Source of the DNA: a virus
Taxonomy: Duplodnaviria > Heunggongvirae > Uroviricota > Caudoviricetes
Direction: 5' to 3' (one strand)
DNA: 64,000 nucleotides
IMG/VR virus record: IMGVR_UViG_3300042474_001151
Coordinates: 48,431-112,430 of that record
The position numbers and the translations under genes were made by a program. The notes below the pieces were generated by a model, which did no database searches, was not told where the DNA came from, and saw nothing but the letters and a program-made list of their open reading frames with translations. Of this stretch, positions 30,457 through 59,719 are shown piece by piece (the stretch's first letter is position 1; every line of letters begins with the position of its first letter).

Positions 30457-31431
30457 ATGGCAAAGATTTTAAAAGTCACAATGACTAAAAAAGATGGTAC
30501 AACATTACCATTACACTATGCACTTTATGACAACAATCCAGTTGTTGATAGATGGATTCAAATGACAAAACAATCATTGGGGAAGAATATGGAAATAAAG
30601 GCTAGAGTGACAAATAACGAATTTAATAATATTGGTTATTTGATGGAACAAATCAATGAAGTACTTGTCTTTATTAATCAAAACTACGATAAGGAATTAC
30701 CAACCTTTACTGACTTTAATGAATTAGATAGCGCAATTTTAAATTACTTACATGAAGAGTTTGAAGTATATGGAGATAGAATCACCTTACTACAAGAGGA
30801 AAATAGGTGGTCGTTTGAATTACATGAGAAATTCTTATCGTTAAATGAATTTATCCATATGATTGAAACTGCAATTCATAGTGCGGAACATAAGTTTCCT
30901 AATTTTAGTTGTTTATATGATTTTTTACCTGCCGGATTACACGAACCCGTAACTGAAGTTGATAAATTGTTCTTAGAAGATAGATTTGAGTGGGGAGGTT
31001 TATATTGTGGATATAATACCTTAGGTAAAGATTATCTTTCAATTGCACCTGAAAATGATTGGGAAGTGATTTACAGAGATGAGGTTAGACCACAAATAAG
31101 ATTTGCACCGGAAACATGGATGAACTTTGGTCCCGACATGACTAATACAATACGAGAAAGTTTTTATAAATGGTACACCACATTATCACCTGAAGTACAA
31201 GCTAAAGTCCCAATAGATGATATGCATAAATTATCTTTAGGAAGATATAAGTTAGGTAGATTAATTTTAGATGATAGTATTAAACAAATTGAACCTAATG
31301 TCGAAAAATGGTTTGTGCCTGCGGGACCATCAGTTGCGTGGGCATTAGGTGACGATAGTTGTAAGGCAAAATGGAATAGAGAAATATTCACACAAGTTAA
31401 CGGGATACAAAAAATTGAAATTTTTGATTAA
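30457..31431 (+). CDS. hypothetical protein within radical SAM cluster
   Basis: 324 aa, translationally coupled. No motif recognised. Confidence 0.6.
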   Translation: MAKILKVTMTKKDGTTLPLHYALYDNNPVVDRWIQMTKQSLGKNMEIKARVTNNEFNNIGYLMEQINEVLVFINQNYDKELPTFTDFNELDSAILNYLHEEFEVYGDRITLLQEENRWSFELHEKFLSLNEFIHMIETAIHSAEHKFPNFSCLYDFLPAGLHEPVTEVDKLFLEDRFEWGGLYCGYNTLGKDYLSIAPENDWEVIYRDEVRPQIRFAPETWMNFGPDMTNTIRESFYKWYTTLSPEVQAKVPIDDMHKLSLGRYKLGRLILDDSIKQIEPNVEKWFVPAGPSVAWALGDDSCKAKWNREIFTQVNGIQKIEIFD

Positions 31432-32405
31432 TGAGAATACCAATAAAAGAAGTAGTTAATAACTATCCCGATGTTTTACAAGTAACTTGGGTAATCAACA
31501 CAATATGTTCCAATAAATGTGCGTATTGTGTTCCCGCATTACATAGTGGACATAATCACGGATATACATGGGAAGCAGTTAAAGCATTTTTTGACGAACT
31601 ATTTCTAAGATACCCAAAAATACACGTATCAATCGCAGGTGGAGAACCAACAATGTCACCATTTCTTTTAGATTTATGTAAAATGATACATGAGAAAGGA
31701 AGTACTGTGGGATTAACATCAAACGGCACCAGAAATGTTGAGTATTATTCTGAACTATCTAAGTATGTTAATTATATAGTATTTTCATATCATCCACAAT
31801 ATGGTGATAAAAATAAAGTTCTTGAAAAAATAAGAGCGTCTATTAATAATTGTTATTGTTCATTAAGAATAATGATGGACCCAAAACATTGGGACGTTGC
31901 TGTTAATATGTTTAACACAACTAAAGAAAGTGACGTGATGGAGTATTTTAATATGGAGGCGGTTAAGATTTTAGATTGGGACCAAGTTGATAGGGATACT
32001 TTAGTATACACCGAAGAACAATTAGAATGGTTTAAAGGTGATAATCGAGTTAACACAAAAACATTAATACCAACAGTCAATAAACCAGCATTAATTGGTG
32101 CACATTTTATTTTATCCGACGGTACTGTTGACACAAAAGCAGATGCTGTTGACTACATTAATGAAGGATTAAGTAATTTCTTTGGGTATCAATGTGACAT
32201 TGGATTGGAATCTTTATTTATTTTTGCTGATGGTGAAATAAAACGAGGTAATTGTGTTGGTTTTGATCTTGGTAATATTAATAAATTACAAGAAATAAAA
32301 TGGCCAACTGGTCCTATTACTTGTCCATGGCATATCTGTCATTGTGCAACAGATGTTATGATAAGTAAAAGAAGTCCGGAGTTAGTAAAAGGAAAATTAA
32401 TATGA
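31431..32405 (+). CDS. radical SAM protein with C-terminal Cys cluster
   Basis: ICSNKCAYC, AGGEPT; C-terminal C...GNC...CPWHICHC. Confidence 0.85.
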   Translation: MRIPIKEVVNNYPDVLQVTWVINTICSNKCAYCVPALHSGHNHGYTWEAVKAFFDELFLRYPKIHVSIAGGEPTMSPFLLDLCKMIHEKGSTVGLTSNGTRNVEYYSELSKYVNYIVFSYHPQYGDKNKVLEKIRASINNCYCSLRIMMDPKHWDVAVNMFNTTKESDVMEYFNMEAVKILDWDQVDRDTLVYTEEQLEWFKGDNRVNTKTLIPTVNKPALIGAHFILSDGTVDTKADAVDYINEGLSNFFGYQCDIGLESLFIFADGEIKRGNCVGFDLGNINKLQEIKWPTGPITCPWHICHCATDVMISKRSPELVKGKLI

Positions 32406-33088
32406 TAAAAAATTTTTTTGATGATGCGTTAACTAATAGTTGGACATCTGATGGTATACCTGAAAATATATTTGATACAAATTGTAATTGGCCATATTCT
32501 GTGATTGATTTTGATAATGATTTTGATGGGATGTTAGAAGAAATTAAATCATTAGAAAAAACATACTTTGTTAAACATAGGGATAAAGATAAAATTAAAT
32601 CGTATAATCATGAAGGATGGAATGCGGTGACGTTACACGGAATTGATTCAACTAAGACGGAACACTTTGACAGATATGGATTTAAAACACAAGAAGAGGC
32701 AAATTATAATTGGACCGACGTTTGTGAATATCTTCCAAAATTAACTAACTTTATAAAATCATTAGGATATGAACAATACGATAGAGTTAGAATTATGAAA
32801 TTAGAGGCGGGAGGTTTTATTATGCCACATACCGACGGTAAAGGAAGAATTTTTGGACCATTTAATATAGCAATAAACAATCCTGAGGGTTGTCAGTTCG
32901 TATTTAAAAACCATGGGTTGGTACCATTTAAAAAAGGTAGAGGGGTGTTCTTAGATTTGGGTAGAGAACATGCAGTTTGGAACAATTCTGATGAGGATAG
33001 ATACCACATAATTGTACACGGACACATTAACCCAAAATTATTAAACGATTCGATAACTTATACTAACACCATTTATGGACATAATTAA
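32402..33088 (+). CDS. 2OG-Fe(II) oxygenase, Asp/Asn beta-hydroxylase-like
   Basis: IMPHTDG...EHAVWN...RYHIIVH (HxD..H..R). Confidence 0.8.
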   Translation: MIKNFFDDALTNSWTSDGIPENIFDTNCNWPYSVIDFDNDFDGMLEEIKSLEKTYFVKHRDKDKIKSYNHEGWNAVTLHGIDSTKTEHFDRYGFKTQEEANYNWTDVCEYLPKLTNFIKSLGYEQYDRVRIMKLEAGGFIMPHTDGKGRIFGPFNIAINNPEGCQFVFKNHGLVPFKKGRGVFLDLGREHAVWNNSDEDRYHIIVHGHINPKLLNDSITYTNTIYGHN

Positions 33089-36000
33089 TAACGTTTTTAC
33101 AAATAATTTAAATTTATCAATTTGCATATTTCCGGCCGATACGTTACACAATGACGAATTGTCCGAACGGATGATTGAATTTACAAGATTCTACACATAC
33201 AGAATAAAAGAAATTACTGAGAATGGTGCAATTGATGTTATTGTTGATAAATCAATAGATGAAGCGTTGATTAACAATCATGAAAAATATGATCATATAT
33301 TATTCATGTCTGCTGGTGTTAGAATTTACGATAGTAGTATAATATTTGATATTGAAAATGAAATATTAAATAATCCAAATTATATGGCGGCCGGTCATAT
33401 TTTGGAATGGAAAGAAAATTGGTACGAATTACACCACCAATTTATTTTAGTTAATACTAAAAATTGGGTAAAAGCTGGTAAACCTTTTTATGGTGGATGG
33501 GAAGGTAAGTACGATGATTTAGTGGTAATAGAAAGGAGTGTTGAAAATTTTCATGATGATTATACACCATTATGGATTAGAAACACCGGCACCATTGAAA
33601 ATAGATTTCACCAAAAACAAGGATGGAATTTTATTAACGAAGCATTGAAAAATGGATTTGACGTCATCAATTGGAATCAAACCATTAGAAATAAAAGAAC
33701 GTATTATTATCCCGAATCCGACAGTGATAAATTTTTAGAATGTTTAAAAACACAAACTGTTGATACAACATTAAACGTTAATCAAGTTAAATTATTACAG
33801 AGTCCGGATTCAGTTAAAAATCAAATATGGTTGTTAAATTCTGAAGATATGAATTTAACATTCTACAATAAAGAAAGTAGATTAGATGTTATTGCAATAC
33901 CTGCTGGAGGATTTAAGTTTTTGGATATCATTAAAAACAAACATTTAAATGAAAACGGAAAAGTTATAATATACGACTTTAATCAAAAAAGTTTAGATTG
34001 GTTTGATTTTATATTAAAAAACGATACAAGTAATATTAAGGAAACTATAAAAGATTTCCAACACAATAGAAATTTTCACTTTTTAGGAATGGGTCAGAAA
34101 GTTTTTGGAATGGATGGAAATTTCACAAATAATTTCATATTAAGTTTAGATAGAACATTTGAATATTATGGAGGAGAAGATAATTTTCATCAATACCTTA
34201 CTGAATTTAAAAAATTAAATGTCAAATTAGTTAATTCTGATTTAATACGCCATCCAGAAAAACTAATTAATGAATTGGACGGTAGAAAAAATTACATAAG
34301 TATTTCTAACATATTCTCAACGGATTACACAAATACATTTATTGGACTTAAAGAGACTAATGAATATTATTTAAAATTAAGGAGTTTATTACCAAACGAC
34401 ACACTATTGGTTGGTTTTACTCCTGACTGTAAGTATATTGATGAGATTCTTTATAAGAATGAATCCATAAAAGAACAGTTAGATAATATTAGTGGAGATA
34501 GAGACCAATTAATATTAAAACACATTTTAGAAAGAGATTCGGAGAGTACGAGAGAAGTTCCTAACAACCACGCTTCGGCACATATAGGTGGAGTTAAAGG
34601 TATTTTAAAATATCAAAATTTTAATGAACCGGTTGCGTTAAAAGATTTCAATGAAGGTAGAGAGAGAGTTATTATGGCAATTTGTCCCAGTTGGGGGGTT
34701 ATATTCCCACCATACGGTGTGTCAAAAATTGTCGGTACATTAAGAAAAGAGGGATTTGCATGTAAGGTATATGACCTAAACGTTCAACTGTATCATAACT
34801 TAATTGAAAGAACCGGTGAAGACTATTGGAGATCTGAAAAGTTTTTCTATTGGGAAGATTCTTGGTTTTTTAAACAATATCTTTTGGATGAAGTGGAACC
34901 GTACCTTAGTAGGGCTGCGGATAAAATAATATCAGATAACCCAACAGTAATTGGGTTAAGTATGTACACCACGAACAGTCAAGCATCTTTAGTACTAATA
35001 AAGAAATTAAAAGAAAGAGCGCCACACATACCAATCGTTGTTGGAGGACCTGCAGTTGCAACAGAAGAATGGTTATTAAACAACGAGTTCTCAAAATACG
35101 TGAGTTACTTTTTCAAAGGTGAAGCTGAAGAGAGTTTTGTTAAATTTTTAAATGACGGAGTACACTTAAAGAAATTACCAATAGATGGAATTTTTATTGG
35201 GGACACCAATAGTAAAATAAACTTAGACGAAAAGGCATACGCCGATTTTTCTGATTATGATTTGGAGTCTTACTTACATCGAGACGGTGTTAGTATCGAA
35301 ACATCGAGAGGATGTGTTGCACAATGTAGTTTCTGTGCTGAAACTTATTTTTGGAGATTTAGGTCAATGACACCGGAAAGAGTAATTGATGAGATGAAAT
35401 TTCAAATTGAAACATATGGTGTTAAAAGATTTTGGTTTGTTGACAGTTTAGTTAATGGTAACCTAAAGAATTTCCAAAGGTTAGTTGATTTGATATTGGA
35501 AAACAAACTTGAGATTGGATGGAATAGTTATAGTAGATGTGATGGAAGAATGACAAAAGAATTTATCGACAAGGTTGCCGACTCTGGTTGTACTGCATTA
35601 AGTTATGGTGTCGAATCTGGAAGTCAAAAGGTCCTCAATGACATGAGAAAAAAAATCGAGATTTGGGAAATCGAAAATAACTTAAGGGACACATACACCA
35701 CCAATAAAATATTCACTCACGTTAATTGGTTAATCGGATTTCCAACTGAAACTTACATTGATTACTATCATAGTAACATTCTAATTTATAATGTTAGAAA
35801 ATACATACACCAATTAAGTCCTGGTATGGGATGTGGACCGAGTGTTTTAAGTGACTTACAGGAAAGATTTGACCTATATGGAATTGCTTGGAAAGAAAGA
35901 ACGTGGGATAATCAATTTTTAGGTAATTGGTATACACATGGTTTTAAAAATACACAACTAAACAGATTCATTAGAATTAAATTATTTCACATATGGATGG

Positions 36001-36587
36001 AAATATTAAAAAATAGTGCCGGTAGTGTGGTCGATAATCCTCAGAGACATAGTGATATAAACGAATCTTACACATTTAAAACAAATAACTATAATATTGA
36101 TGAATATATGATTCAAGAAGAGAATATTAATTTTAAATTAATTGAAGAGTCTGAGTCAAATTCATTGTTAAGTACATATGTTGCAAATGAACCACTACCA
36201 ATATTCTTTGGGTTATATAAGATATTCAAAGGTTTTGAAATGAATATCACATTTGACCCTGATAAAGATATAAAGTCATGGGGAAGTATTTCTGTCAATT
36301 ACTTTGCAAATATTAACTTTAAAATAGATAATTCTGGAAATTATACATATTCAATTAATCATGGAATGAGACATTATGGAATGACTCCTAAAATTGAAGA
36401 AACATATAAATGGGAAAGAAACAATACTCATGGTGACATGAGTTTTAGTGACCAATTTATTAAAAGTGGAAACATAAAAAATTGGATTACTAATGAAGAT
36501 TATGTTGATGAAACTATTCATGAACAGTATAGAAATAAAACTAAAAAACATTTAACACCGGTTACGGTCACAAAAAGACTAATATAA
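33075..36587 (+). CDS. multidomain protein: unknown N-terminal region fused to B12-binding radical SAM (class B methylase-like)
   Basis: PPYGVSKI..LRKEGF..YDLN and IVVGGP (B12-binding); ETSRGCVAQCSFC; YGVESGSQKVL; HVNWLIGFPTET. Confidence 0.8.
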   Translation: MDIINNVFTNNLNLSICIFPADTLHNDELSERMIEFTRFYTYRIKEITENGAIDVIVDKSIDEALINNHEKYDHILFMSAGVRIYDSSIIFDIENEILNNPNYMAAGHILEWKENWYELHHQFILVNTKNWVKAGKPFYGGWEGKYDDLVVIERSVENFHDDYTPLWIRNTGTIENRFHQKQGWNFINEALKNGFDVINWNQTIRNKRTYYYPESDSDKFLECLKTQTVDTTLNVNQVKLLQSPDSVKNQIWLLNSEDMNLTFYNKESRLDVIAIPAGGFKFLDIIKNKHLNENGKVIIYDFNQKSLDWFDFILKNDTSNIKETIKDFQHNRNFHFLGMGQKVFGMDGNFTNNFILSLDRTFEYYGGEDNFHQYLTEFKKLNVKLVNSDLIRHPEKLINELDGRKNYISISNIFSTDYTNTFIGLKETNEYYLKLRSLLPNDTLLVGFTPDCKYIDEILYKNESIKEQLDNISGDRDQLILKHILERDSESTREVPNNHASAHIGGVKGILKYQNFNEPVALKDFNEGRERVIMAICPSWGVIFPPYGVSKIVGTLRKEGFACKVYDLNVQLYHNLIERTGEDYWRSEKFFYWEDSWFFKQYLLDEVEPYLSRAADKIISDNPTVIGLSMYTTNSQASLVLIKKLKERAPHIPIVVGGPAVATEEWLLNNEFSKYVSYFFKGEAEESFVKFLNDGVHLKKLPIDGIFIGDTNSKINLDEKAYADFSDYDLESYLHRDGVSIETSRGCVAQCSFCAETYFWRFRSMTPERVIDEMKFQIETYGVKRFWFVDSLVNGNLKNFQRLVDLILENKLEIGWNSYSRCDGRMTKEFIDKVADSGCTALSYGVESGSQKVLNDMRKKIEIWEIENNLRDTYTTNKIFTHVNWLIGFPTETYIDYYHSNILIYNVRKYIHQLSPGMGCGPSVLSDLQERFDLYGIAWKERTWDNQFLGNWYTHGFKNTQLNRFIRIKLFHIWMEILKNSAGSVVDNPQRHSDINESYTFKTNNYNIDEYMIQEENINFKLIEESESNSLLSTYVANEPLPIFFGLYKIFKGFEMNITFDPDKDIKSWGSISVNYFANINFKIDNSGNYTYSINHGMRHYGMTPKIEETYKWERNNTHGDMSFSDQFIKSGNIKNWITNEDYVDETIHEQYRNKTKKHLTPVTVTKRLI

Positions 36588-41528: not shown

Positions 41529-41901
41529 AAAATATGCATTATACGTGGGACGTTGGCAAAATTTTCACGCTGGACACGAATGGTTAATTAACCAACAATT
41601 AGAAAAAGGTAAAAATGTTTGGGTTGCAATTAGAGATGTTCCACAAGATGAGAACAACCCTAAAACGGCAATACAAATTTTAAATGAGTTATCAAACGAA
41701 CCTTTCTTCAAAGATAAGTTTGATAGAATATTATTATCAATTATACCTGACATTGAAAGTATTAATTACGGAAGAGGGGTTGGGTATGATGTGATATATC
41801 ACGAACCACCAGCGGATGTTGCGGTTATTAGTGGGACAGCAATTAGAACTGGTCACATGACACCCGATGGTACCATGACTTATGATAAAAACAAGGGATA
41901 A
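41521..41901 (+). CDS. HxGH nucleotidyltransferase (cytidylyltransferase-like fold)
   Basis: YVGRWQNFHAGH, ISGTAIR. Start reassigned to ATG 41521. Confidence 0.75.
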   Translation: MSKKYALYVGRWQNFHAGHEWLINQQLEKGKNVWVAIRDVPQDENNPKTAIQILNELSNEPFFKDKFDRILLSIIPDIESINYGRGVGYDVIYHEPPADVAVISGTAIRTGHMTPDGTMTYDKNKG

Positions 41902-42461
41902 TGAATTTTAATTACATAGGAAGTGTGGATATATCCAATATCAAATTAAAATTATTAAATATGAATGAAAGTGTTTGGTTGGAGAATACTATAAGACAAA
42001 CTACATTTGATGTACATAGACACACTGAAACCATTTATTTAATGTGGGATATGGAATCATTGGCTACAAATGTAAAAGGAACTATTCATCCTAATTTTTA
42101 TAATTTTGGTGTTGATAAATTACTTACAATTTTATCTCCTTTATATGAAAAAACATATGGAAATGGAGAATTTATAAGAGTTGTTTTAGCTAAATTAAAA
42201 AAGAATACCAAAATATATCCTCATATAGATAGTGGGGAAAGTTTATCATCTTGCAAAAGAACACATATACCAGTTATATCAAATCCACTTGTTAAATTTA
42301 CAATTGATGATGAAACTAAATTCTTACAAGAAGGAGAAATTTGGGAAATTAACAACCAAAACACACATTCAGTTGAAAATATGAGTGAGATTGATAGAAT
42401 ACATTTTATTATAGATTATATGGTATCAGATAAAATTAAAAAAATAAAATCGTTACTATGA
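41901..42461 (+). CDS. 2OG-Fe(II) oxygenase, Asp/Asn beta-hydroxylase-like
   Basis: IYPHIDSG, RTHIP, HSVEN...RIHFIID. Confidence 0.8.
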   Translation: MNFNYIGSVDISNIKLKLLNMNESVWLENTIRQTTFDVHRHTETIYLMWDMESLATNVKGTIHPNFYNFGVDKLLTILSPLYEKTYGNGEFIRVVLAKLKKNTKIYPHIDSGESLSSCKRTHIPVISNPLVKFTIDDETKFLQEGEIWEINNQNTHSVENMSEIDRIHFIIDYMVSDKIKKIKSLL

Positions 42462-42673
42462 TAGTAGAGCATAAAAGACATATAGCTAAAACCATCTCAT
42501 ATCGTATTTTAAGTACCCTTATAGGGGTTTTAGTAATGTGGTGGATAAGTGGTTCAATTAAGATAGGAGCTGCATTTGGAGTTGTAGAATTAGTGTATAA
42601 ACCAGTTCAATACTATATTCATGAAAGAGTATGGTATAAATTTATAAAATACGGATTAAAAAAGAAAGACTGA
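42458..42673 (+). CDS. small membrane protein, DUF2061-like
   Basis: KRHIAKTISYRIL...YYIHERVWYK; two short hydrophobic segments. Confidence 0.7.
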   Translation: MIVEHKRHIAKTISYRILSTLIGVLVMWWISGSIKIGAAFGVVELVYKPVQYYIHERVWYKFIKYGLKKKD

Positions 42674-43233
42674 TGGATAAATTTCATATTATAAAAAATT
42701 TTTTAACCGAAGAGGAATGTTTTAATATTTTAGTAAAATACAAATCTGAATTAAAACTAAAACCTGCCGAGATAGCTAAAATGGGGGGTAATACAATTAG
42801 TGATAAAAGGAGGTCATCCATAGCGTTTATCGATAGTATAAAAACGATAGATGAAAGACTTAATAATATATTAAAGAATACAATACAAATCAAGGGATTT
42901 GAAGTAACAGGTTTAGGTCCATATCAATTTACGGAATATAAAGTTGGTGAACATTACGATTGGCACACCGATTCATCACCCATTGGAGATGAATATAAGG
43001 GTAGATTTTGTTCTATTGTTATTCAGATTAATGATGAATATGACGGTGGATACCTTCAGTTAAAAGATGAGAATGGTGATAATATTCAATTGGATAAAGG
43101 TACGGGAAATATGTATATATTTTATTCAAATATAACTCACAGGGTGGTACCTGTTACAAGTGGCGTGAGATACTCTTTGGTTAATTGGATTTCATTAAAC
43201 CCCATAGAAAACTTTAAAAAAACAATAATATAA
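42673..43233 (+). CDS. 2OG-Fe(II) oxygenase, prolyl-4-hydroxylase-like
   Basis: YDWHTDS, YDGGYL, HRVVPVTSGVRYSLV. Confidence 0.85.
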   Translation: MDKFHIIKNFLTEEECFNILVKYKSELKLKPAEIAKMGGNTISDKRRSSIAFIDSIKTIDERLNNILKNTIQIKGFEVTGLGPYQFTEYKVGEHYDWHTDSSPIGDEYKGRFCSIVIQINDEYDGGYLQLKDENGDNIQLDKGTGNMYIFYSNITHRVVPVTSGVRYSLVNWISLNPIENFKKTII

Positions 43234-43251
43234 AATATTCTAAAAATAAGA

Positions 43252-43259
43252 TATTTATA
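43252..43259 (+). promoter_or_regulatory. putative late-promoter motif TATTTATA
   Basis: Intergenic, before the ATP-grasp/Hint gene. Confidence 0.45.
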
Positions 43260-43282
43260 TATAAAACTATAACTCATTAGAT

Positions 43283-44734
43283 ATGAAATCACTATTAATC
43301 GCAACAGACTTAATAAAAACAGTCTCAGGAGATATAAAAGTATTGGAAACAAATACAAACGCTCTCGTAAATTATAATTTTAACGACAATATACATTATT
43401 TGGACAATCTTACTACGTTTATCCAAGCCAATCAATTTCAAACGGTACATTGTATATATCCAATTAACTCATCTAATTTTACTAAAAAACTAAAAGAAAT
43501 ATGTGAACCACTAAATATAGAGATTGTTGACCACCTTACGGATGCCGGTTCGGTTACAGTTCCTTACATTGAAGATTCGGAAGATATTTTGATTATTAGA
43601 ATCTCATATGATACAACCGCAATCATTGACGAGGATTATTGTAAAGATAAATTCAAATTACAGAATATTATTAATAATAAGACATATGGTTCTAAAACAT
43701 TTATACCAAACGAGTTAGATAATTTTGAGTTAATACCAGATTTTCAATATTCGGATGATGTACCAAATTTCATTGTAAAAAAGAGATTTCCTAACTACGA
43801 TAGGGAAATTTACCCCAAATTATATAAGATTCAAAATTTGGTGGAATTAAATGAATTAAAGACCACAATAGAATCCGATTGCTACTTACAAGAATTTCAC
43901 CATTCTCAATTGGTAGAAGACAAAAGATGTGTGATTAGAAGTTTAGATCTGTTATATGGTAACAATTTGGACGTATTAAATATTTGTAGTTTTTATAAGA
44001 CAAATCAATTGGCTGAGAATCAATGGGAAAACACATTTAATGAGGATGGGTTGTTGGCTAAAAAAGATAGACCAAAATATATAACAAACACAAATGAAAA
44101 TGCTAGTTCTTTTTGGCCTTATGTTTATGATGTTGATCAAGAATTAATTATGGGTGATGGAGGTAGAAAACCATTTAATGAATTACAAATTGGTAATAGT
44201 GTTAAAACTGTACATATTGATGGGTTAGATTTAGATGAAAGAACTTATAAAATGTTTGAGTGGGTGGGGAATTACAATGATTTCGTATCTAATATATATC
44301 TTAAAGAAACTCAGGTCACATCCATATTTACATCCCCACCAACATCGCAATTATTTTTAAGAGTTACTTTAGACGATGGTGTAACAGAATGGGATGATTT
44401 GAATGAAACACCACTATTAGTAAAGGTTGGTGAAACAATAATTTTTAAGGAGTTCGGAGAACTTCAAATTGGAGATAGTATTGTGACATTTAACTTTGAA
44501 ACTAATTTACCCGAAATTAAAAACGTACAATCTATTGATGTTGTCTTTAAAGATGAACAAGTGTTAGGTTCTATTGATGTTGAACCAGAAGATGTCTATA
44601 TGCCATTAGTATCACAATACATTACAATTATTCAACACAACCAATGTAATAAGGGGTGTAAATCAACAGCATGTGCAGACGCATATTATTGTGGAGACTG
44701 TTCACCTATTTTCTGCGGACCACCCCCAAAATAA
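43283..44734 (+). CDS. putative circularly permuted ATP-grasp domain + Hint domain + 30-aa Cys-rich C-terminal peptide
   Basis: N-term ATDL..GDIKVLETNTN, FIVKKR, YLQEF. Hint-like LIMGDG.RKPFNELQIGNSV ... ELQIGDSI ... IDVEPED ... IIQHN (about 44123-44641). Then QCNKGC...GPPPK. Confidence 0.65.
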   Translation: MKSLLIATDLIKTVSGDIKVLETNTNALVNYNFNDNIHYLDNLTTFIQANQFQTVHCIYPINSSNFTKKLKEICEPLNIEIVDHLTDAGSVTVPYIEDSEDILIIRISYDTTAIIDEDYCKDKFKLQNIINNKTYGSKTFIPNELDNFELIPDFQYSDDVPNFIVKKRFPNYDREIYPKLYKIQNLVELNELKTTIESDCYLQEFHHSQLVEDKRCVIRSLDLLYGNNLDVLNICSFYKTNQLAENQWENTFNEDGLLAKKDRPKYITNTNENASSFWPYVYDVDQELIMGDGGRKPFNELQIGNSVKTVHIDGLDLDERTYKMFEWVGNYNDFVSNIYLKETQVTSIFTSPPTSQLFLRVTLDDGVTEWDDLNETPLLVKVGETIIFKEFGELQIGDSIVTFNFETNLPEIKNVQSIDVVFKDEQVLGSIDVEPEDVYMPLVSQYITIIQHNQCNKGCKSTACADAYYCGDCSPIFCGPPPK

Positions 44735-44761
44735 ATTTAAAAATAAAATAAATTATATATT

Positions 44762-44872
44762 ATGTCAATAAAAACTATATTCGCACCCACAGAAGAGGGA
44801 ACTAAAACAGTCGTTGAAACCACAATACAAGATATGGTTTTGACAATCTTGTCAGATGTTCAATCTTCTTAA
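44762..44872 (+). CDS. 36-aa Thr-rich peptide (not in ORF track)
   Basis: MSIKTIFAPTEEGTKTVVETTIQDMVLTILSDVQSS*. Fills the gap between neighbours, with an A-rich leader. Confidence 0.5.
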   Translation: MSIKTIFAPTEEGTKTVVETTIQDMVLTILSDVQSS

Positions 44873-44893
44873 TTATTTAATTAGTTCATATCC

Positions 44894-45190
44894 ATGTCAT
44901 CAATAGATATACGAGAAATTACATCAGCTTGGTGGGATTCTTATTTTGCAGATGATAAACAAAAAAAATTAGCAAAACAAAGGTTTAATGTTTGTGAAAG
45001 TTGTCCATCGTTAGAACAAAAATTTAAACAAATAAGAAAAATAACGATTAGCGTTTGTGGTGAATGTGGATGCCCAATCGACAAAAAAATATTTTCAAAT
45101 AAGTTTAATGCATGTCCTTTGGGTAAATGGAAAGAAATAGATGAATCACAACCAGAGTTGTTTAAAATCCGAAAAGATAAAATGTTATGA
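44894..45190 (+). CDS. small Cys-rich metal-binding protein
   Basis: CESC...CGECGC...CPLGKW. Confidence 0.7.
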   Translation: MSSIDIREITSAWWDSYFADDKQKKLAKQRFNVCESCPSLEQKFKQIRKITISVCGECGCPIDKKIFSNKFNACPLGKWKEIDESQPELFKIRKDKML

Positions 45191-45786
45191 ATTACCCCTT
45201 TTATCAAGAAGTTATTTTTACGCAAGAAGAATGTAAAAAAATAATAGAATACTCTAAAGTTTATCCAGCATCTGCTGAAAAAAGAAAATTAGAACCTAAT
45301 ATAAATCTCGAAACAAATCGTGCAGAACAACATATACCATCTATTGATGGAAATAAAAAAGGAAAGGCATTCTTTGTTTATGATATTGTCAGAGAAAAAA
45401 ATACGGAATGGGTTTTTGAAAAACTATTAAATTGGTTTCAAAAAGTTTCAAATATTAAATTAAAAGAAACACCCACACTAAATGGTATGACTTTACTTAA
45501 CTATAAAGTTGGGGATTTTTTTATGAAGCATACCGACATATATAAAAATTTTGAGTGGAGGAGATGGACAATAAACATTCAGTTAGGTAATCAATATAAA
45601 GGAGGTGATTATGTTTTATATTTGGATGATACTGAAATTATTTTGAATAAAGAGATGGGTAATGCAATTGCATATTGGGCTGGTACAGAACACGAAATTA
45701 AAGAAATAAAAGAGGGTGAAAGATGGTCAATTGTGTGTTCGGTAGGAAAACATATGATTATCGAAAACGAAAAAAAGTTATTATAA
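45187..45786 (+). CDS. 2OG-Fe(II) oxygenase
   Basis: FMKHTD, YKGGDY, EHEIKEIKEGERWSIV. Confidence 0.82.
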   Translation: MNYPFYQEVIFTQEECKKIIEYSKVYPASAEKRKLEPNINLETNRAEQHIPSIDGNKKGKAFFVYDIVREKNTEWVFEKLLNWFQKVSNIKLKETPTLNGMTLLNYKVGDFFMKHTDIYKNFEWRRWTINIQLGNQYKGGDYVLYLDDTEIILNKEMGNAIAYWAGTEHEIKEIKEGERWSIVCSVGKHMIIENEKKLL

Positions 45787-45787
45787 A

Positions 45788-46483
45788 ATGTCTTTATTAA
45801 TAAATAATGAATTGATTTGGGTATCAGTTCCAAGATGTGCTAGTCACTCAATTGAAACATCTTTTTACAATTCAAAATTAAAAATAGAACATTACGCCAC
45901 TATTTTTAAGGATTTAGTTCCGACTGATGTTGAATTTAAACATCAACATTACAATTTATATGATTTAAATACTAGATGGTTAAATAAAAAAACAATTAGA
46001 ATCAAACGAGATTGGATGGAACGATGGGTATCTGCGTTAGAACATCTTTGGTTTACTATTGAAAAAAACAATGGAACACCAATTATACCATATAAGGAAA
46101 TTGATAACAATTTTATTTATCGAACGTTCACAAAAAAATTTGGGAATGAATTATACTCTGAAGGGGGGCAATATAAAATATTTTATTACTTAATAAAGGA
46201 TTTTGTTCTAACAGAAAGTTTCAAATTAGGAACGAGAACCGGATTATTATGGTCTCAAAATTATTGGTTAAGTGGTGAAAAAAAGTGTGACTTCGAATTT
46301 GATATATATGAATTAGATAAGTTCGCGGATTTTATTGAAAAAAAGTACGGTGAAAAATTAATTATTGAACATCAAAACAAATCAAAAAAGAAGACAAATA
46401 AAATTGTTATAAACGATGATTTAAAGAATCACATATGGGAAGTTTTTGAATCTCCATTTTATAAATCTTCAAAAATTTTTTAA
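45788..46483 (+). CDS. sulfotransferase-like protein
   Basis: WVSVPRCASHSI (PSB-loop-like), RDWMERWVSA. Confidence 0.55.
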   Translation: MSLLINNELIWVSVPRCASHSIETSFYNSKLKIEHYATIFKDLVPTDVEFKHQHYNLYDLNTRWLNKKTIRIKRDWMERWVSALEHLWFTIEKNNGTPIIPYKEIDNNFIYRTFTKKFGNELYSEGGQYKIFYYLIKDFVLTESFKLGTRTGLLWSQNYWLSGEKKCDFEFDIYELDKFADFIEKKYGEKLIIEHQNKSKKKTNKIVINDDLKNHIWEVFESPFYKSSKIF

Positions 46484-46495
46484 TTTTTAATAAAT

Positions 46496-46524
46496 TTGAC
46501 AATGTGGACTTTTTTTCGTATATT
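46496..46524 (+). promoter_or_regulatory. sigma70-like promoter TTGACA-N17-TATATT
   Basis: In the intergenic gap before the SET gene; ATG 8 nt downstream. Confidence 0.75.
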
Positions 46525-46532
46525 CATATCAT

Positions 46533-46904
46533 ATGATCATTAAAAATAAAATTCAATTAGAGGTAAAATATATAGACGAAACAATGGGTTTCGGTGTTTT
46601 CGCTTCACAGGATATTGACGAAGGTACTATCATTGAAACTTGTTATAGTATTAAAACATACAATCAAACGTTTAACCCGTGTTTTGACTATCTTTTCAGT
46701 TTAAGTAACACAGAATCTTTACTACCTTTGGGTTATGGTTCAATATATAACCACAGTTACACACCAAATATACATTGGAGAGTCGTAAACTACGAAAAGC
46801 CCATCATTGAATTTTTCTCATTAAAAAAAATAAAATCGGGCGATGAGTTGTGTCACAACTATGGTGCTCATTATTGGAAAGTTAGAGAAAAAAAATTACT
46901 ATAA
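46533..46904 (+). CDS. SET-domain protein (lysine methyltransferase-like)
   Basis: GFGVFA..DI..G, GSIYNHSYTPN, IKSGDELCHNYG. Confidence 0.85.
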   Translation: MIIKNKIQLEVKYIDETMGFGVFASQDIDEGTIIETCYSIKTYNQTFNPCFDYLFSLSNTESLLPLGYGSIYNHSYTPNIHWRVVNYEKPIIEFFSLKKIKSGDELCHNYGAHYWKVREKKLL

Positions 46905-46905
46905 T

Positions 46906-47580
46906 ATGGGAACCCTTTGGACATTTGGAGATTCGTTTACGGCGGGTGATGGATGTGTGGAAAATATACCTATTAGAGATGGTGATTTTAAATATTATAA
47001 CGAATATAAACAATTAGATAGTGATATATGGCCAAACATATTAGGTGAAACTATTAGATATAATGTAAAAAATATGGGAAAAAGTGGGGCAAGTAATGAT
47101 TATATTTTAGATTCTATTATTGATAATTTTAATATGATAACGATGGATGATGTGGTTATAATTGAAAAAACATTTTACCAAAGATTCGATGTCCCTAAAT
47201 TAAATAGTGATGAATTTCAAACAATATATGGTGAAGCTCTTTATATAATGGATACTGATTTAAAAAAAAATAAATATAATAAAGATAAATTAGAGATTGA
47301 AACAATATTAAATTATGGTGTTTTATTTTGTCAAAACTCGCTGTTTCAGGAAAGACAGAACAAACGATTTCGATTTATTGAAACATTATTAAAATTAAAC
47401 GTAAAAAAAATTTTAATTTGGGATATTGATAGTGATTTAAGAAAATCAATTGAAACAATTTCACGACACACAAAAGGTAAAATAAAGGATTATCATTTTA
47501 GTTTTAATGGTCATAAAGAATTTAGTGAACTTTTATATAAAAAACTATACACTAAAGATATTAAACTCACATTAATTTAA
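46906..47580 (+). CDS. SGNH/GDSL-like protein
   Basis: TFGDSFTAG, GASNDYI, DYHFSFNGH. Start reassigned to ATG 46906. Confidence 0.65.
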   Translation: MGTLWTFGDSFTAGDGCVENIPIRDGDFKYYNEYKQLDSDIWPNILGETIRYNVKNMGKSGASNDYILDSIIDNFNMITMDDVVIIEKTFYQRFDVPKLNSDEFQTIYGEALYIMDTDLKKNKYNKDKLEIETILNYGVLFCQNSLFQERQNKRFRFIETLLKLNVKKILIWDIDSDLRKSIETISRHTKGKIKDYHFSFNGHKEFSELLYKKLYTKDIKLTLI

Positions 47581-48630
47581 ATGAAAAACAAAATAGATTT
47601 AAAAGATTATGTATGTGGTGTGCCATTCGACTCATTGGAAATACATAATAACCAATATTTTGTATGTTGCCCGTCATGGTTAAGTGTTTCGTTTAAAAGA
47701 GATGATTATGAATTGAATGAAATATGGAATAGTGAACCCGTTCAAAATATTAGAGAAAGTATATTAGATGGTTCATTTAAGTATTGTAATAAAGAACTTT
47801 GCCCATTTTTAAGTAAATTGGTAAATTATGGGGTAGCAACGGGCCCAATTAGTTTGAAATCAAATTCACATATTAATAGTTCTATTATGGAAAATGATAC
47901 TCCTAATATATTAATGATGAATTTTGATAGAACTTGTAATTATAAATGTCCATCATGTAGAGTAGATTTAATCGTTGAAAATGGTCAAGGAATAAAGAGG
48001 GTTGAAAAAACAATTGAAGATATTGATAATTATTATTCTGCAAATGTGAAATCATTATACATAACAGGTTCAGGAGACCCATTTGTATCGGTGGCATTTA
48101 GAAATTATTTAAGAAACTTCAACCCTAAAAAATACCCTAAATTAAAATCGATACATTTACACACCAATGCTTCAATGTGGAATAAAGAAATGTGGGATAG
48201 TATGCCAAACATACACAAATATGTGCGCACTTGTGAAATTAGCATAGATGCTGGAACTAAAGACACTTACGAAAATAAAACAAGATTAGGTGGGGATTGG
48301 GAAAACTTGTTAAATAATCTTAAATTCATAAGTACCTTACCAATAAATGTGAAAACGTCTTTTGTTGTGCAAGATTCCAACTATATGGAAATGGAAACAT
48401 TTTATAATTTAATGTATTCTATATTTGGTAAAAAGGTAAATGTATTTTTTGGTAAGATAACCAATTGGGGAACATTTTCCGATGGAGAATTTAAATTAAA
48501 ACAAGTGTGGGATACAGAACATCCCGAACATCACTTATTCAAAAAAGAGTTTAATAAAATATGGAAAAATCAAAACCTTTTTCATAATCTATATGAGTTT
48601 ATAGATAACACTAAGAAAACTTTAATATAA
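47581..48630 (+). CDS. radical SAM protein with N-terminal twitch-like cluster
   Basis: VCGVPF...CCP...CNKELCP; RTCNYKCPSC; GSGDPF. Confidence 0.85.
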   Translation: MKNKIDLKDYVCGVPFDSLEIHNNQYFVCCPSWLSVSFKRDDYELNEIWNSEPVQNIRESILDGSFKYCNKELCPFLSKLVNYGVATGPISLKSNSHINSSIMENDTPNILMMNFDRTCNYKCPSCRVDLIVENGQGIKRVEKTIEDIDNYYSANVKSLYITGSGDPFVSVAFRNYLRNFNPKKYPKLKSIHLHTNASMWNKEMWDSMPNIHKYVRTCEISIDAGTKDTYENKTRLGGDWENLLNNLKFISTLPINVKTSFVVQDSNYMEMETFYNLMYSIFGKKVNVFFGKITNWGTFSDGEFKLKQVWDTEHPEHHLFKKEFNKIWKNQNLFHNLYEFIDNTKKTLI

Positions 48631-48634
48631 TTTA

Positions 48635-49201
48635 ATGGTTATAACAATACTCGCTGAACCAAGAACGGGTTCAACAAATTTGGCAGACTGGTTTAAATCA
48701 AATAATGATTTTACCGTTTTACAAGAACCATTAAATAAATATGGAAAATCATATAAAAAAAATAATCCTATTAATACTTGGATATACAATACACCACATT
48801 TATTAATTAAGGAAATATATGACCCAAATAAAGATTTAAGTGAACTAATAGAATTTTCAGATAAAATAATTATTCTTTATAGAGAAAATAAAAAGGAACA
48901 ATTAGAATCTTGGTTAGTTGCGAAGGTGACCAATAATTGGGGAGGTAAATGGGTAAATAGTAAAATTAATATACCCGACAAAGAATTAAAAATTGAGTTT
49001 TTTAATGAAATGGTAAATGGTTTCGAAAAAGAATATAGGTCATGTGATAATATGTTTAAAATATCATATGAAGAGCTTTATTACAATAATGGTTTTGAAA
49101 AAATTGTGAATTATCTTAATATTGATACAGTTAATAATATTGATTTCCCATATGGTCAAAAATATAGGTTGGAAAACATAGAAACAAATAAATTAATATG
49201 A
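48635..49201 (+). CDS. sulfotransferase-like P-loop protein
   Basis: AEPRTGSTNL, QEP, IILYRENK.EQL.SW, ISYEELY. Confidence 0.6.
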   Translation: MVITILAEPRTGSTNLADWFKSNNDFTVLQEPLNKYGKSYKKNNPINTWIYNTPHLLIKEIYDPNKDLSELIEFSDKIIILYRENKKEQLESWLVAKVTNNWGGKWVNSKINIPDKELKIEFFNEMVNGFEKEYRSCDNMFKISYEELYYNNGFEKIVNYLNIDTVNNIDFPYGQKYRLENIETNKLI

Positions 49202-50007
49202 ATCCATTAAAATATTGGGTCCCCGACACATTCGAAATTTCATCTTACAAATACCCATTAAAAGAAAGAATAAATAAAACTTATACGACCTCCGGTGGGG
49301 ATGATACTGGTAAATGTATTTACACGTACAATGAATTAGGTTTTAGGGGAGACAGTGTGAAAAAAAAAGGATTTAAGATAATGTCAATAGGGTGTTCATT
49401 TACGGAAGGGGTTGGTGTGGACGATACCGAAACTTGGCCGTACCAATTTACTAATTTAATACCAGATGGTGTTAATATGAATTTTGGAACTGGTGGAAGG
49501 AGTAACGATTTTATAACGAGATGTTTATTAACGTATTATGATTTAATAAAACCAGATTTGGTATTAATAATGTATACAAATCCACAAAGAAAAGAAATAT
49601 ACACAAAAGATGGTGGAGTAGAACCATTTATGCCCACTGCCAGTTGGGGTTGGATGGAATTGACCAAAGAAGGACGTGAAGTACAAAATAATTTGGTATC
49701 ACTACAAAACGAAAACGAAGATTTCATAAATTGGTATAAAAATCATTTGCTTATAAAATATTTTTTAGAAACAAAGAAATGTAATTGGGTATGGAATGGT
49801 CATTTTGGTATACCAAACGATTATAATGAATTTAATAGATTTGATGGTGATTACGAAAAACCATTTTTGGATTATGGAGTTGATAAGGTACATCCAGGAC
49901 CAAAACATAATAACGAATATGTTAGACGTTTATTTAATCACATATATATAAATTTTAGAGAGTACTTACCAGAAGACCTAACCCAACCCAAAAAGAGGTT
50001 AATTTAA
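49198..50007 (+). CDS. SGNH/GDSL-like protein
   Basis: SIGCSFTEGVGV, TWP, GRSNDFI, DKVHPGPKHN. Confidence 0.65.
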   Translation: MNPLKYWVPDTFEISSYKYPLKERINKTYTTSGGDDTGKCIYTYNELGFRGDSVKKKGFKIMSIGCSFTEGVGVDDTETWPYQFTNLIPDGVNMNFGTGGRSNDFITRCLLTYYDLIKPDLVLIMYTNPQRKEIYTKDGGVEPFMPTASWGWMELTKEGREVQNNLVSLQNENEDFINWYKNHLLIKYFLETKKCNWVWNGHFGIPNDYNEFNRFDGDYEKPFLDYGVDKVHPGPKHNNEYVRRLFNHIYINFREYLPEDLTQPKKRLI

Positions 50008-58954: not shown

Positions 58955-59719
58955 ATGGAACAAGGTTACAAATACGACAGGTCTAATTTTATCAATAACC
59001 CATTTGATGAAAAACTAATGCAAATATCTGAAAGCATGTCATTTGCATTACCGAAATATAAGGCATATAATTTCGTTGGGGGTGCACAAATAACTCCATA
59101 TGCGAGATTAAAACAATGGTTATTGGAATTAAGAGGTAGAGAAGATGCTGTTGAACATTTGGAATATACAGTAAGAAAGGCCGAACTTGAAATTCAAATG
59201 GACGAAGAAAGTAAAGAATTTATTACCGACACCAAAAGAAAAGAAATGGTCGATTTAACCATTGCAGATAAACGTATTGATTTAAGAAAATTTAATAGAA
59301 ATCTTAAAGATGCGTATAGAGAAAGACAAGGGTTTATTGATTTAATTAAGGAATATTTGGAATCAGATGATGCCACCTTACCCGATGGTACCAAATTAAT
59401 TGATGTTTTTGGTAATCCAGAATTGGAAGAAAAATATGAGCACGAATATTGGACTGTTCGTATGGCTAAACAAGCAATGTTGGATATGATTTCATATGGT
59501 AGAATTGGTACAGGTAACTTAGATTCAATTCTTATGATGGACCCTGAACAACAAAAACAAGTTTTAACTTTGGCTTCAGCATACACGATTTCTATTGATA
59601 AAAATATAAATCAATTAATGTCACAAGCTACAACAGATAATTTCTCAATTGAAGAGTCGTTAAAGAATCAATTGAAATTAACAGAACCAAATAAAATAGA
59701 AACAGAAAAATTATTATAA
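58955..59719 (+). CDS. helical/coiled-coil hypothetical protein
   Basis: 254 aa, YARLKQWLLELRGRE; preceded by a sigma70-like promoter. Confidence 0.6.
   Translation: MEQGYKYDRSNFINNPFDEKLMQISESMSFALPKYKAYNFVGGAQITPYARLKQWLLELRGREDAVEHLEYTVRKAELEIQMDEESKEFITDTKRKEMVDLTIADKRIDLRKFNRNLKDAYRERQGFIDLIKEYLESDDATLPDGTKLIDVFGNPELEEKYEHEYWTVRMAKQAMLDMISYGRIGTGNLDSILMMDPEQQKQVLTLASAYTISIDKNINQLMSQATTDNFSIEESLKNQLKLTEPNKIETEKLL

Follow-up and report, generated by a model that had tools for sequence, protein, structure and literature searches.

Three modules in one phage protein

What is the function of a phage protein that joins a putative amide ligase, a Hint-like domain, and a short cysteine-rich tail in a single chain? 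The question is raised by a gene at positions 43283 to 44734 (plus strand) of a 64,000-nucleotide stretch of DNA (referred to here as the window), which is part of a 176-kb viral record of the IMG/VR database (IMGVR_UViG_3300042474_001151). The gene, of which the record holds a single copy, belongs to a large T4-like uncultured phage, and the window also encodes T4-type tail-fiber proteins. Its 483-amino-acid product, P0001, is read here, with a probability of about one half, as a peptide-maturation protein for single use with a built-in substrate, in which asparagine cutting behind the Hint domain is combined with ATP-dependent amide ligation on the tail and the peptide is tailored by neighboring enzymes that share a C-terminal tag.

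The open reading frame (ORF) is uninterrupted, and its N terminus is in line with those of all homologs. P0001 comprises a permuted ATP-grasp domain (residues 1 to 272), a Hint fold (residues 281 to 453), and a tail with six cysteines (residues 454 to 483). A first-pass annotation, made from the sequence alone, had described these three parts, and every motif that it quoted was located in its place: D9, E22-x-N24, FIVKKR at residues 163 to 168, YLQEF at residues 201 to 205, and IIQHN at residues 449 to 453. The three-part observation on P0001 is confirmed; with 90 close and 226 representative homologs built in the same way, the layout is more than chance. The AlphaFold2 model of the full-length protein, for which an alignment of 139 homologs served as input, has a predicted local distance difference test (pLDDT) score of 91.1 and a predicted template modeling score of 0.87, except for residues 457 to 483, where the pLDDT falls below 50 and the tail is poorly modeled. 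Both folds that had been put forward, for residues 1 to 280 and 281 to 453, were predicted, the permuted ATP-grasp within residues 1 to 272 and the Hint fold across residues 281 to 453. P0001 matches no family in Pfam (E values up to 10) or PHROGs.

A permuted ATP-grasp ligase at the N terminus

Residues 1 to 272 (43283 to 44098, plus strand) are predicted to form a carboxylate-amine ligase of the glutathionylspermidine synthetase (GspS)/YgiC lineage with a circularly permuted ATP-grasp fold, in which the Mg and ATP residues (D9, E22-x-N24, R106, D116, K166, and R219) are conserved. Folded alone with AlphaFold2, this part reached a pLDDT of 95.7. The best Foldseek matches were YgiC (E value of 4e-7), glutathione synthetases, YjfC, a putative GspS, and GspS of Escherichia coli. 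An exhaustive structural search ranked at the top YgiC (Z score of 9.9 over 200 residues, with a root mean square deviation [rmsd] of 4.1) and GspS (Z score of 9.7), together with glutathione synthetases and the E-64 amide ligase Cp1B (Z score of 8.5). The ten best structural matches are all permuted amide ligases, spanning the domain from residue 1 to 4 up to residue 242 to 272, whereas canonical ATP-grasps (LysX/ArgX, RimK, and TTLL) align with P0001 only from approximately residue 52, as circular permutation predicts. The motif at residues 9 to 24 places the E-x-N strand ahead of the ATP-binding strands, as in the permuted lineage. The glutathionylspermidine synthase type of N terminus, which had been proposed from the D..ExN motif, is borne out both by the fold matches to YgiC and GspS and by the conservation of that motif.

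The fold, the three Mg ligands, and the conserved Lys and Arg residues of ATP-grasp enzymes are all found in this domain. Among the 139 homologs, E22, N24, R106, D116, and R219 never vary, 138 have K166, and 127 have the complete ligase signature together with the His-Asn pair of the Hint domain. A profile search of the PDB with the ligase part was not significant (E value of ∼1); it placed residues 9 to 31 on the Mg-ligand segment of biotin carboxylase and D-Ala-D-Ala ligase, with D9, E22, and N24 paired with the three Mg ligands of biotin carboxylase, an alignment that has by itself an E value of only ∼1.

The permuted fold and the early D...E-x-N motif are shared with GspS (2io7), YgiC/YjfC (7uka and 7uk6), eukaryotic glutathione synthetase, and fungal Cp1B (9cjn). 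The solved relatives of the domain all couple a carboxylate, often a peptide C terminus, with a primary amine. PMC12568646 likewise presents the GspS-family enzymes as carboxylate-amine ligases that often act on a peptide C terminus and, citing Pederick 2023, names YgiC/YjfC peptidylpolyamine synthetases. P0001 differs from this family in its low identity (9 to 16%, and 11 to 16% with YgiC and GspS, at Z scores of ∼10), in the smaller size of its domain (272 amino acids), in the fusion of the ligase to a Hint domain with a tethered peptide, and in that the Pfam scan (E values up to 10) gave no match to the GspS family model (GSP_synth). A ligase of the graspetide type is less likely: the graspetide ATP-grasp 7mgv aligns with a Z score of only 4.8 over residues 52 to 272, far under the permuted ligases; graspetides are, moreover, made from a separate precursor that bears a leader, whereas the tail of P0001 has none.

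A Hint domain that keeps only its C-terminal pair

Residues 281 to 453 (44123 to 44641, plus strand) match the Hint fold by both structure and sequence profile. The closest structures found with VIA-align were those of the Hedgehog Hint domain (6tyy, with a Z score of 16.6 and an rmsd of 2.0 over 142 residues) and 6y75 (Z score of 16.5), and more than 100 PDB chains match this part with Z scores of at least 8. Foldseek searches of the PDB with the full-length model retrieved inteins, the Hedgehog autoprocessing domain, and bacterial intein-like (BIL) domains with E values of 5e-9 to 1e-7 and target TM scores of up to 0.83. By sequence alone, the family profile finds inteins in the PDB, among them the KlbA intein, which has Ala at position 1 (E value of 1.5e-8). 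In many of the structural alignments, residues 281 to 453 correspond to the intein from its first to its last residue, which places Val281 at the position of Cys1 and Asn453 at that of the terminal Asn.

The residues that serve the early steps of splicing are missing. Position 281 is occupied by H, I, K, V, L, and others among the 139 homologs and by Cys in none, and residues 281 to 453 of P0001 contain no cysteine at all. Block B reads T-E-W-D-D-L, lacking TxxH, and no His is conserved there among homologs. The residue at position +1, following the Asn, is Gln in P0001; just 11 of 138 homologs have C, S, or T there. P0001 has, therefore, neither the Cys/Ser/Thr1 and TxxH of class 1 inteins, nor the +1 nucleophile of any class, nor the block F Cys of class 3. 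What is present is the C-terminal His-Asn of block G, as found in inteins and type A BIL domains: His452 and Asn453 (codons at 44636 to 44641, plus strand), the predicted site of Asn cyclization and C-terminal cleavage, are conserved in 132 and 138 of the 139 homologs, respectively, and Asn453 lies on the terminal Asn of inteins. The earlier description of a Hint-like segment with Val at the place of Cys1, no TxxH in block B, and an IIQ-H-N end is accurate in every detail, and its expectation that His-Asn would be fixed in homologs very nearly holds.

Because the best match by sequence in the PDB is to the Ala1 intein KlbA, the mechanisms of inteins of class 2 and of class 3 were also weighed. 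As reviewed in PMC4031507, class 2 inteins depend on Cys+1, Thr B:7, and His B:10, and those of class 3 depend on a Cys in block F; both were ruled out for P0001, which has no +1 nucleophile, TxxH, or block F Cys. According to the same review, the C-terminal site is cleaved when Asn cyclization proceeds without the earlier steps. The Hint domain of P0001 has lost the residues for the first steps of splicing, which leaves Asn cyclization as the sole step that would still be possible, and the two residues that would serve it are those that selection has kept.

Among known Hint proteins, the type A BIL domains and the PT-HINT domains of polymorphic toxins (PF07591) are alike in their Hint fold, terminal His-Asn, lack of a +1 nucleophile, and variable C-terminal cargo, and the expected outcome in these is cleavage rather than splicing (PMC4031507). 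The Hint domain of P0001 differs in having no Cys1, no TxxH, and no Cys of any kind, and it matched neither of these two families in the Pfam scan (E values up to 10); its cargo is a 30-residue Cys-rich peptide and not a toxin, and an ATP-grasp domain is fused in front of it. Hedgehog and the Tetrahymena BUBL domains, which provide the nearest Hint structures, also use Hint chemistry for maturing an adjoining polypeptide, but they act at an N-terminal Cys through a thioester, whereas the Hint domain of P0001 would be confined to the C-terminal Asn.

A short and rapidly changing cysteine-rich tail

The tail (residues 454 to 483; 44642 to 44731, plus strand) consists of 30 residues with six cysteines, at positions 455, 459, 464, 470, 473, and 478, followed by a Pro-rich end and a C-terminal Lys, and has a mass of 3128.6 Da in the reduced state. 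Most family members carry a tail of 23 to 67 residues behind the His-Asn. The number of cysteines in these tails is 6 in 48 cases, 8 in 34, 10 in 8, and 12, 4, and 1 in one case each, while 6 tails contain none. The number is thus even in 92 of the 93 Cys-bearing tails. This indicates pairing of the cysteines, most simply in disulfides. The first Cys typically lies two residues past the Asn, and the tails commonly end in a Gly/Pro-rich stretch and a Lys, which is found among the last three residues in approximately two-thirds of them. In the four homologs in which the His or the Asn is missing, the Cys tail is missing as well.

The rate of change of the tail was assessed from identities by divergence class rather than from the ratio of nonsynonymous to synonymous substitution rates (dN/dS), a measure that was dropped because synonymous sites were saturated in most pairs and the tail lacks sufficient length. 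Pairs of homologs with 98, 94, and 84% identity in the body have 89, 74, and 70% identity, respectively, in the tail, and the spacing of the cysteines varies from clade to clade. A Pfam scan of eight tails (E values up to 10) returned one meaningless match and no Cys-rich family. A tail that is short, Cys-rich, and hypervariable had been anticipated; the tails are short and Cys-rich and change faster than the body, the exceptions being a few of just 5 to 7 residues. In one pair of loci (L066 and L083), the gene bodies are nearly identical (synonymous divergence [dS] of 0.05 to 0.07), whereas the tails are far apart (dS of 0.67, over very few sites), which suggests that a tail may have been swapped by recombination and not changed by point mutation alone.

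Knottins, cyclotides, and conotoxins resemble these tails in size (27 to 35 amino acids), in the fixed scaffold of six or eight cysteines with fast-changing loops, and in the types of tailoring enzymes found nearby (prolyl and Asp/Asn hydroxylase-like). The tails differ in showing no sequence or family match to them, in their clade-dependent Cys spacing, in that their disulfides are deduced from the even count, and in their phage source.

Distribution of the family and extended homologs

The family comprises 90 close homologs and 226 cluster representatives (50% identity, E values up to 1e-3), and it is found on 249 viral contigs, some of them longer than 300 kb. It is almost absent from cultured phages and cellular genomes. 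A tblastn search of 50,697 deposited phage records gave no match to P0001, although near-identical records may lie outside that set, and 185,579 genomes of prokaryote species gave a single match (L090), on a 3.7-kb contig (VHCC01000082.1) of a Pelagibacterales metagenome-assembled genome. This contig is probably a phage fragment binned with that genome and is at most a weak hint to the host.

Distant homologs extend the chain beyond the Hint domain, and the ligase signature is intact in all of them. In some, canonical Hint domains, which start with Cys and match Pfam PF07591 (PT-HINT) and PF14890 (intein), are added after the tail or straight after the His-Asn, up to three in tandem, and beyond the final one the chain once more closes with a short stub that contains Lys (for example, K, KK, or KKF). 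In P0228, P0189, P0233, P0234, P0236, and P0230, two or three tandem canonical Hints abut the degenerate Hint, with no Cys-rich stretch between them. Mobile Hint elements thus seem to have inserted more than once at a single site. Other distant homologs carry behind the tail a chaperone module that resembles Peptidase_S74, below the Pfam cutoff, and its conserved Ser often comes immediately after a Lys. Were the Ser the cutting site of this module, as it is in endosialidases, a Lys end of the type seen in the window would remain on the tail.

The S74-like module bears on a first alternative to release of the tail. According to this, the tail stays attached, the His-Asn serves the fold or rare cleavage, and the Cys-rich end forms a disulfide or metal knot that anchors, stabilizes, or localizes (for example, to a virion or an assembly) a ligase whose substrate lies elsewhere. 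Such modules stand behind the tail in some homologs much as they do in tail fibers and tailspikes, tail-fiber genes lie in the same window, and the tail matches no known peptide family. Nevertheless, an attached tail is fairly unlikely, as 138 of the 139 homologs retain the Asn while other catalytic positions of the Hint have drifted, for which the fold alone is a hard explanation. Structural knots are, moreover, normally conserved, whereas in the P0001 family the tail outpaces the body in change and the Cys framework varies among clades; the S74 matches themselves are below the Pfam cutoff.

Linked genes and a shared C-terminal tag

The surroundings of the fusion gene were compared across 82 related loci, to which the counts given in this section refer. 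Three features came to light that the first-pass annotation had not mentioned: a micro-gene, a zinc-ribbon partner, and a C-terminal tag shared by many of the neighboring proteins.

The micro-gene (44762 to 44872, plus strand; 36 amino acids) lies directly behind the fusion gene and was recognized from synteny and dN/dS. In 81 of the loci, a small ORF of approximately 28 to 50 codons begins 1 to 38 nucleotides past the fusion gene's stop codon, behind tail-less homologs as well. The pooled dN/dS of 0.24 (64 pairs) indicates purifying selection and, hence, a real gene. It is followed by a gene for a 98-residue zinc-ribbon-like protein (44894 to 45190, plus strand) with the pattern CxxC...CxxCxCP...C, which has a homolog on the same strand in 76 loci and carries the tag in 86% of cases. 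The position of this gene differs between clades: after the micro-gene in the clade of 40 to 54% identity and upstream of the fusion gene in that of 28 to 33% identity, where, in 57 loci, no more than 125 bp separate it from the fusion gene's start. A linkage that outlasts a change in gene order argues for a functional tie. W13, R30, and six cysteines are among the invariant residues of the protein. It shows a weak likeness to DUF6171, which matches 31 of 55 members, all under the Pfam cutoff; zinc-ribbon families also remain subthreshold. Atlas look-ups of the zinc-ribbon and micro-gene products returned unnamed viral clusters and the weak DUF6171 lead, and nothing else. Prediction of a complex between P0001 and the zinc-ribbon protein (score of 0.07; mark of 0.32) gives no verdict either way.

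The tag consists of a Lys, one or two residues, and two aliphatic residues at the very C terminus (K-x-[LI]-[LIF]-COOH), for example, K-T-I-I, K-K-L-L, or K-T-L-I. In the segment from 41901 to 50007, it ends 10 of 13 genes, versus 4 of the 40 genes elsewhere in the window (Fisher's P value of 1e-5, for a pattern picked after the data were seen). In the related loci, eight linked families carry the tag in 81 to 100% of their members and a ninth, that of a 269-residue protein, in 62%, while it is rare (0 to 4%) in the carbamoyltransferase, adenylylsulfate (APS)-kinase-like, 147-residue, and DUF2061 families and is found on 5% of the opposite-strand ORFs. The pattern, a loose one, also occurs in about half (374 of 768) of the other same-strand ORFs of at least 100 amino acids within 10 kb of the fusion gene in loci L002 to L083. 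In the window, K-x-L-[IL] also ends the genes at 31431 to 32405, 33075 to 36587, and 58955 to 59719, one of which encodes 1,170 amino acids, and the tagged set may thus extend past the cluster.

The tagged genes of the block all lie on the plus strand. Upstream of the fusion gene lie an Asp/Asn beta-hydroxylase-like gene (41901 to 42461; PF05118, E value of 2.5e-11), a family recorded near distant homologs too, and a gene for a prolyl 4-hydroxylase-like 2-oxoglutarate (2OG)-Fe(II) oxygenase (42673 to 43233; PF13640, E value of 5.8e-15), present in 70 loci and tagged in 89%. A second 2OG-Fe(II) oxygenase (45187 to 45786; PF13640, E value of 2.3e-8; 66 loci, 91% tagged) is encoded downstream of the zinc-ribbon gene. 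Next come a 231-residue protein, possibly a sulfotransferase (45788 to 46483; 45 loci, 92% tagged), a SET-domain protein (46533 to 46904; PF00856, E value of 3.4e-14; 10 of 10 homologs tagged), a 245-residue GDSL/SGNH-like protein (46843 to 47580; 35 loci, 81% tagged), a radical S-adenosylmethionine (SAM) protein (47581 to 48630; PF04055, E value of 2.4e-8; 25 loci, 86% tagged), and two proteins of 188 and 269 residues with no Pfam match (48635 to 50007; 34 and 13 loci, 93 and 62% tagged, respectively). Of the neighbors suggested as tailoring enzymes, the oxygenase, SET, and radical SAM genes have labels that Pfam confirms and are linked to the fusion gene across distant phages. The other two labels are weak: the 231-residue protein has no Pfam match, its designation resting on a faint PF00685 record of the counterpart in locus L003, and the SGNH match (PF00657, E value of 0.011) is under the Pfam cutoff. 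Between 41091 and 41901, an APS-kinase-like gene overlaps a 147-residue ORF with a weak cytidylyltransferase likeness (E value of 0.021); they are found near the fusion gene in 29 and 39 loci, respectively, and both are untagged.

The tag could also be a substrate. In a second alternative, the ligase activates the K-x-L-I carboxylates of the neighboring proteins and couples them with an amine in the ligase's own tail, that of a Lys or the freed alpha-amine, whereby every tagged protein would gain a Cys-rich peptide. The tag is common to many unrelated enzymes around the fusion gene, and the nearest solved relatives, GspS and YgiC/YjfC, couple a peptide C-terminal carboxylate to a primary amine (for YgiC/YjfC, as stated in PMC12568646); to judge by the titles of references 36 and 37 in PMC4031507, type A BIL domains can ligate through the amine that Asn cyclization frees. 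The tagged proteins, however, have the look of common tailoring enzymes, for which no peptide is required, and each ligase molecule would serve one target only, which makes this alternative distinctly unlikely.

Proposed release and modification of the tail

In the maturation reading set out at the start, Asn453 would cyclize to a succinimide and break the bond between N453 and Q454, splitting the chain into a ligase-Hint fragment of 52.5 kDa and a peptide of 3.1 kDa whose alpha-amine is free. On the tethered tail, the ligase would form one amide bond, with the C-terminal carboxylate, a Lys, or the new alpha-amine as the site. The oxygenases, the SET and radical SAM proteins, and the other tagged enzymes, brought to the same assembly by their K-x-[LI]-[LIF]-COOH ends, would tailor the tail. 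If the even number of cysteines reflects disulfide pairs, the peptide would have its role outside the reducing cytoplasm. Cleavage, ligation, and tailoring are probable steps in the light of the predicted folds, the catalytic residues that were kept or lost, and the evolution of the tail and of the neighboring genes. The interpretation in the first-pass annotation is partly supported: the checks by computation that it called for all turned out in its favor, and self-modification and autocatalytic release are inferences.

Several observations weigh against this reading. The homologs P0143, P0163, and P0203 retain the His-Asn with tails of just 5 to 7 residues, and downstream of them no separate gene for a Cys-rich peptide was found, only the micro-gene; the release of such a peptide is, therefore, not universal, or not the whole purpose of the Hint domain. 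Cutting at the Asn seems to matter even where there is no Cys-rich cargo. Approximately one-third of the short tails have no Lys among their last three residues. The pLDDT of the tail, below 50, allows no contact with the ligase site to be read from the model. The structural match of the ligase is moderate (Z score of ∼10, rmsd of 4.1), and both Pfam and PHROGs are blind to P0001. Furthermore, 2OG oxygenases are common in phage islands of this kind, and common ancestry may account for some of the synteny.

A more specific version of the ligation step is quite improbable. In it, the ATP-grasp domain replaces the lost first half of splicing, an acyl-phosphate made with ATP taking the place of the Cys1 thioester and being attacked by the freed alpha-amine of the tail, which cyclization of Asn453 would expose right at the ligase. 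If the C terminus of the tail itself were activated, the product would be a head-to-tail cyclic, disulfide-knotted peptide resembling a cyclotide.

Very unlikely is the view that the Hint domain and the tail are the remnant of a mobile intein-like element behind an unrelated small-molecule ligase (forming, for example, a polyamine or thiol conjugate): mobile elements evidently visit the site, where distant homologs have one to three canonical Hints inserted after the degenerate one, and the nearest structures are small-molecule ligases, but a remnant would decay, whereas the His-Asn and the even Cys count are clearly constrained, and none of the 226 clusters holds a ligase without the degenerate Hint, the shorter entries looking like fragments at contig ends.

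Relation to known systems and implications

The layout of P0001 and the tailoring-type neighbors would fit a pathway for ribosomally synthesized and posttranslationally modified peptides (RiPPs). A parallel, already drawn in the first-pass annotation, is to the borosins of the OphMA type, which unite a modifying enzyme and a C-terminal core peptide in one chain. In borosins, the enzyme is a SAM-dependent N-methyltransferase and the peptide is freed by a separate protease; in P0001, by contrast, the enzyme is an ATP-grasp, and the built-in Hint domain is the likely release device. A search of the literature on phage ATP-grasp and Hint proteins, phage GspS, and phage RiPPs found no description of a ligase-Hint-peptide layout.

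The fusion design may represent a new way of making or attaching a modified peptide. If the maturation reading is correct, large aquatic phages make small, disulfide-rich, and heavily tailored peptides by a route for which no published description was found, with enzyme, release device, and peptide in one chain and recruitment through a tag on the enzymes instead of a leader on the peptide. It would also account for some of the many 2OG oxygenases and other auxiliary genes that are unexplained in large marine and freshwater phages, and protein engineering would gain a compact permuted ligase and a natural Hint domain that only cleaves. The question would then be what use the phage makes of the peptide: taking over the host, competing, fending off grazers, and decorating the virion are among the options.

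Other features of the window

A late-type promoter upstream of the fusion gene, suggested earlier as a sign of expression with virion genes, is not supported. The sequence TATTTATA is found at 43252 to 43259, where the T4 late consensus TATAAATA is present on the opposite strand only, and this octamer is underrepresented in the window, with 5 occurrences versus a mean of 17.5 in shuffled sequences. Farther along, between 55517 and 58904, three colinear paralogs (379, 368, and 369 amino acids; phrog_1417) all end in G-T-S-S-G-H-C-G-W-R.

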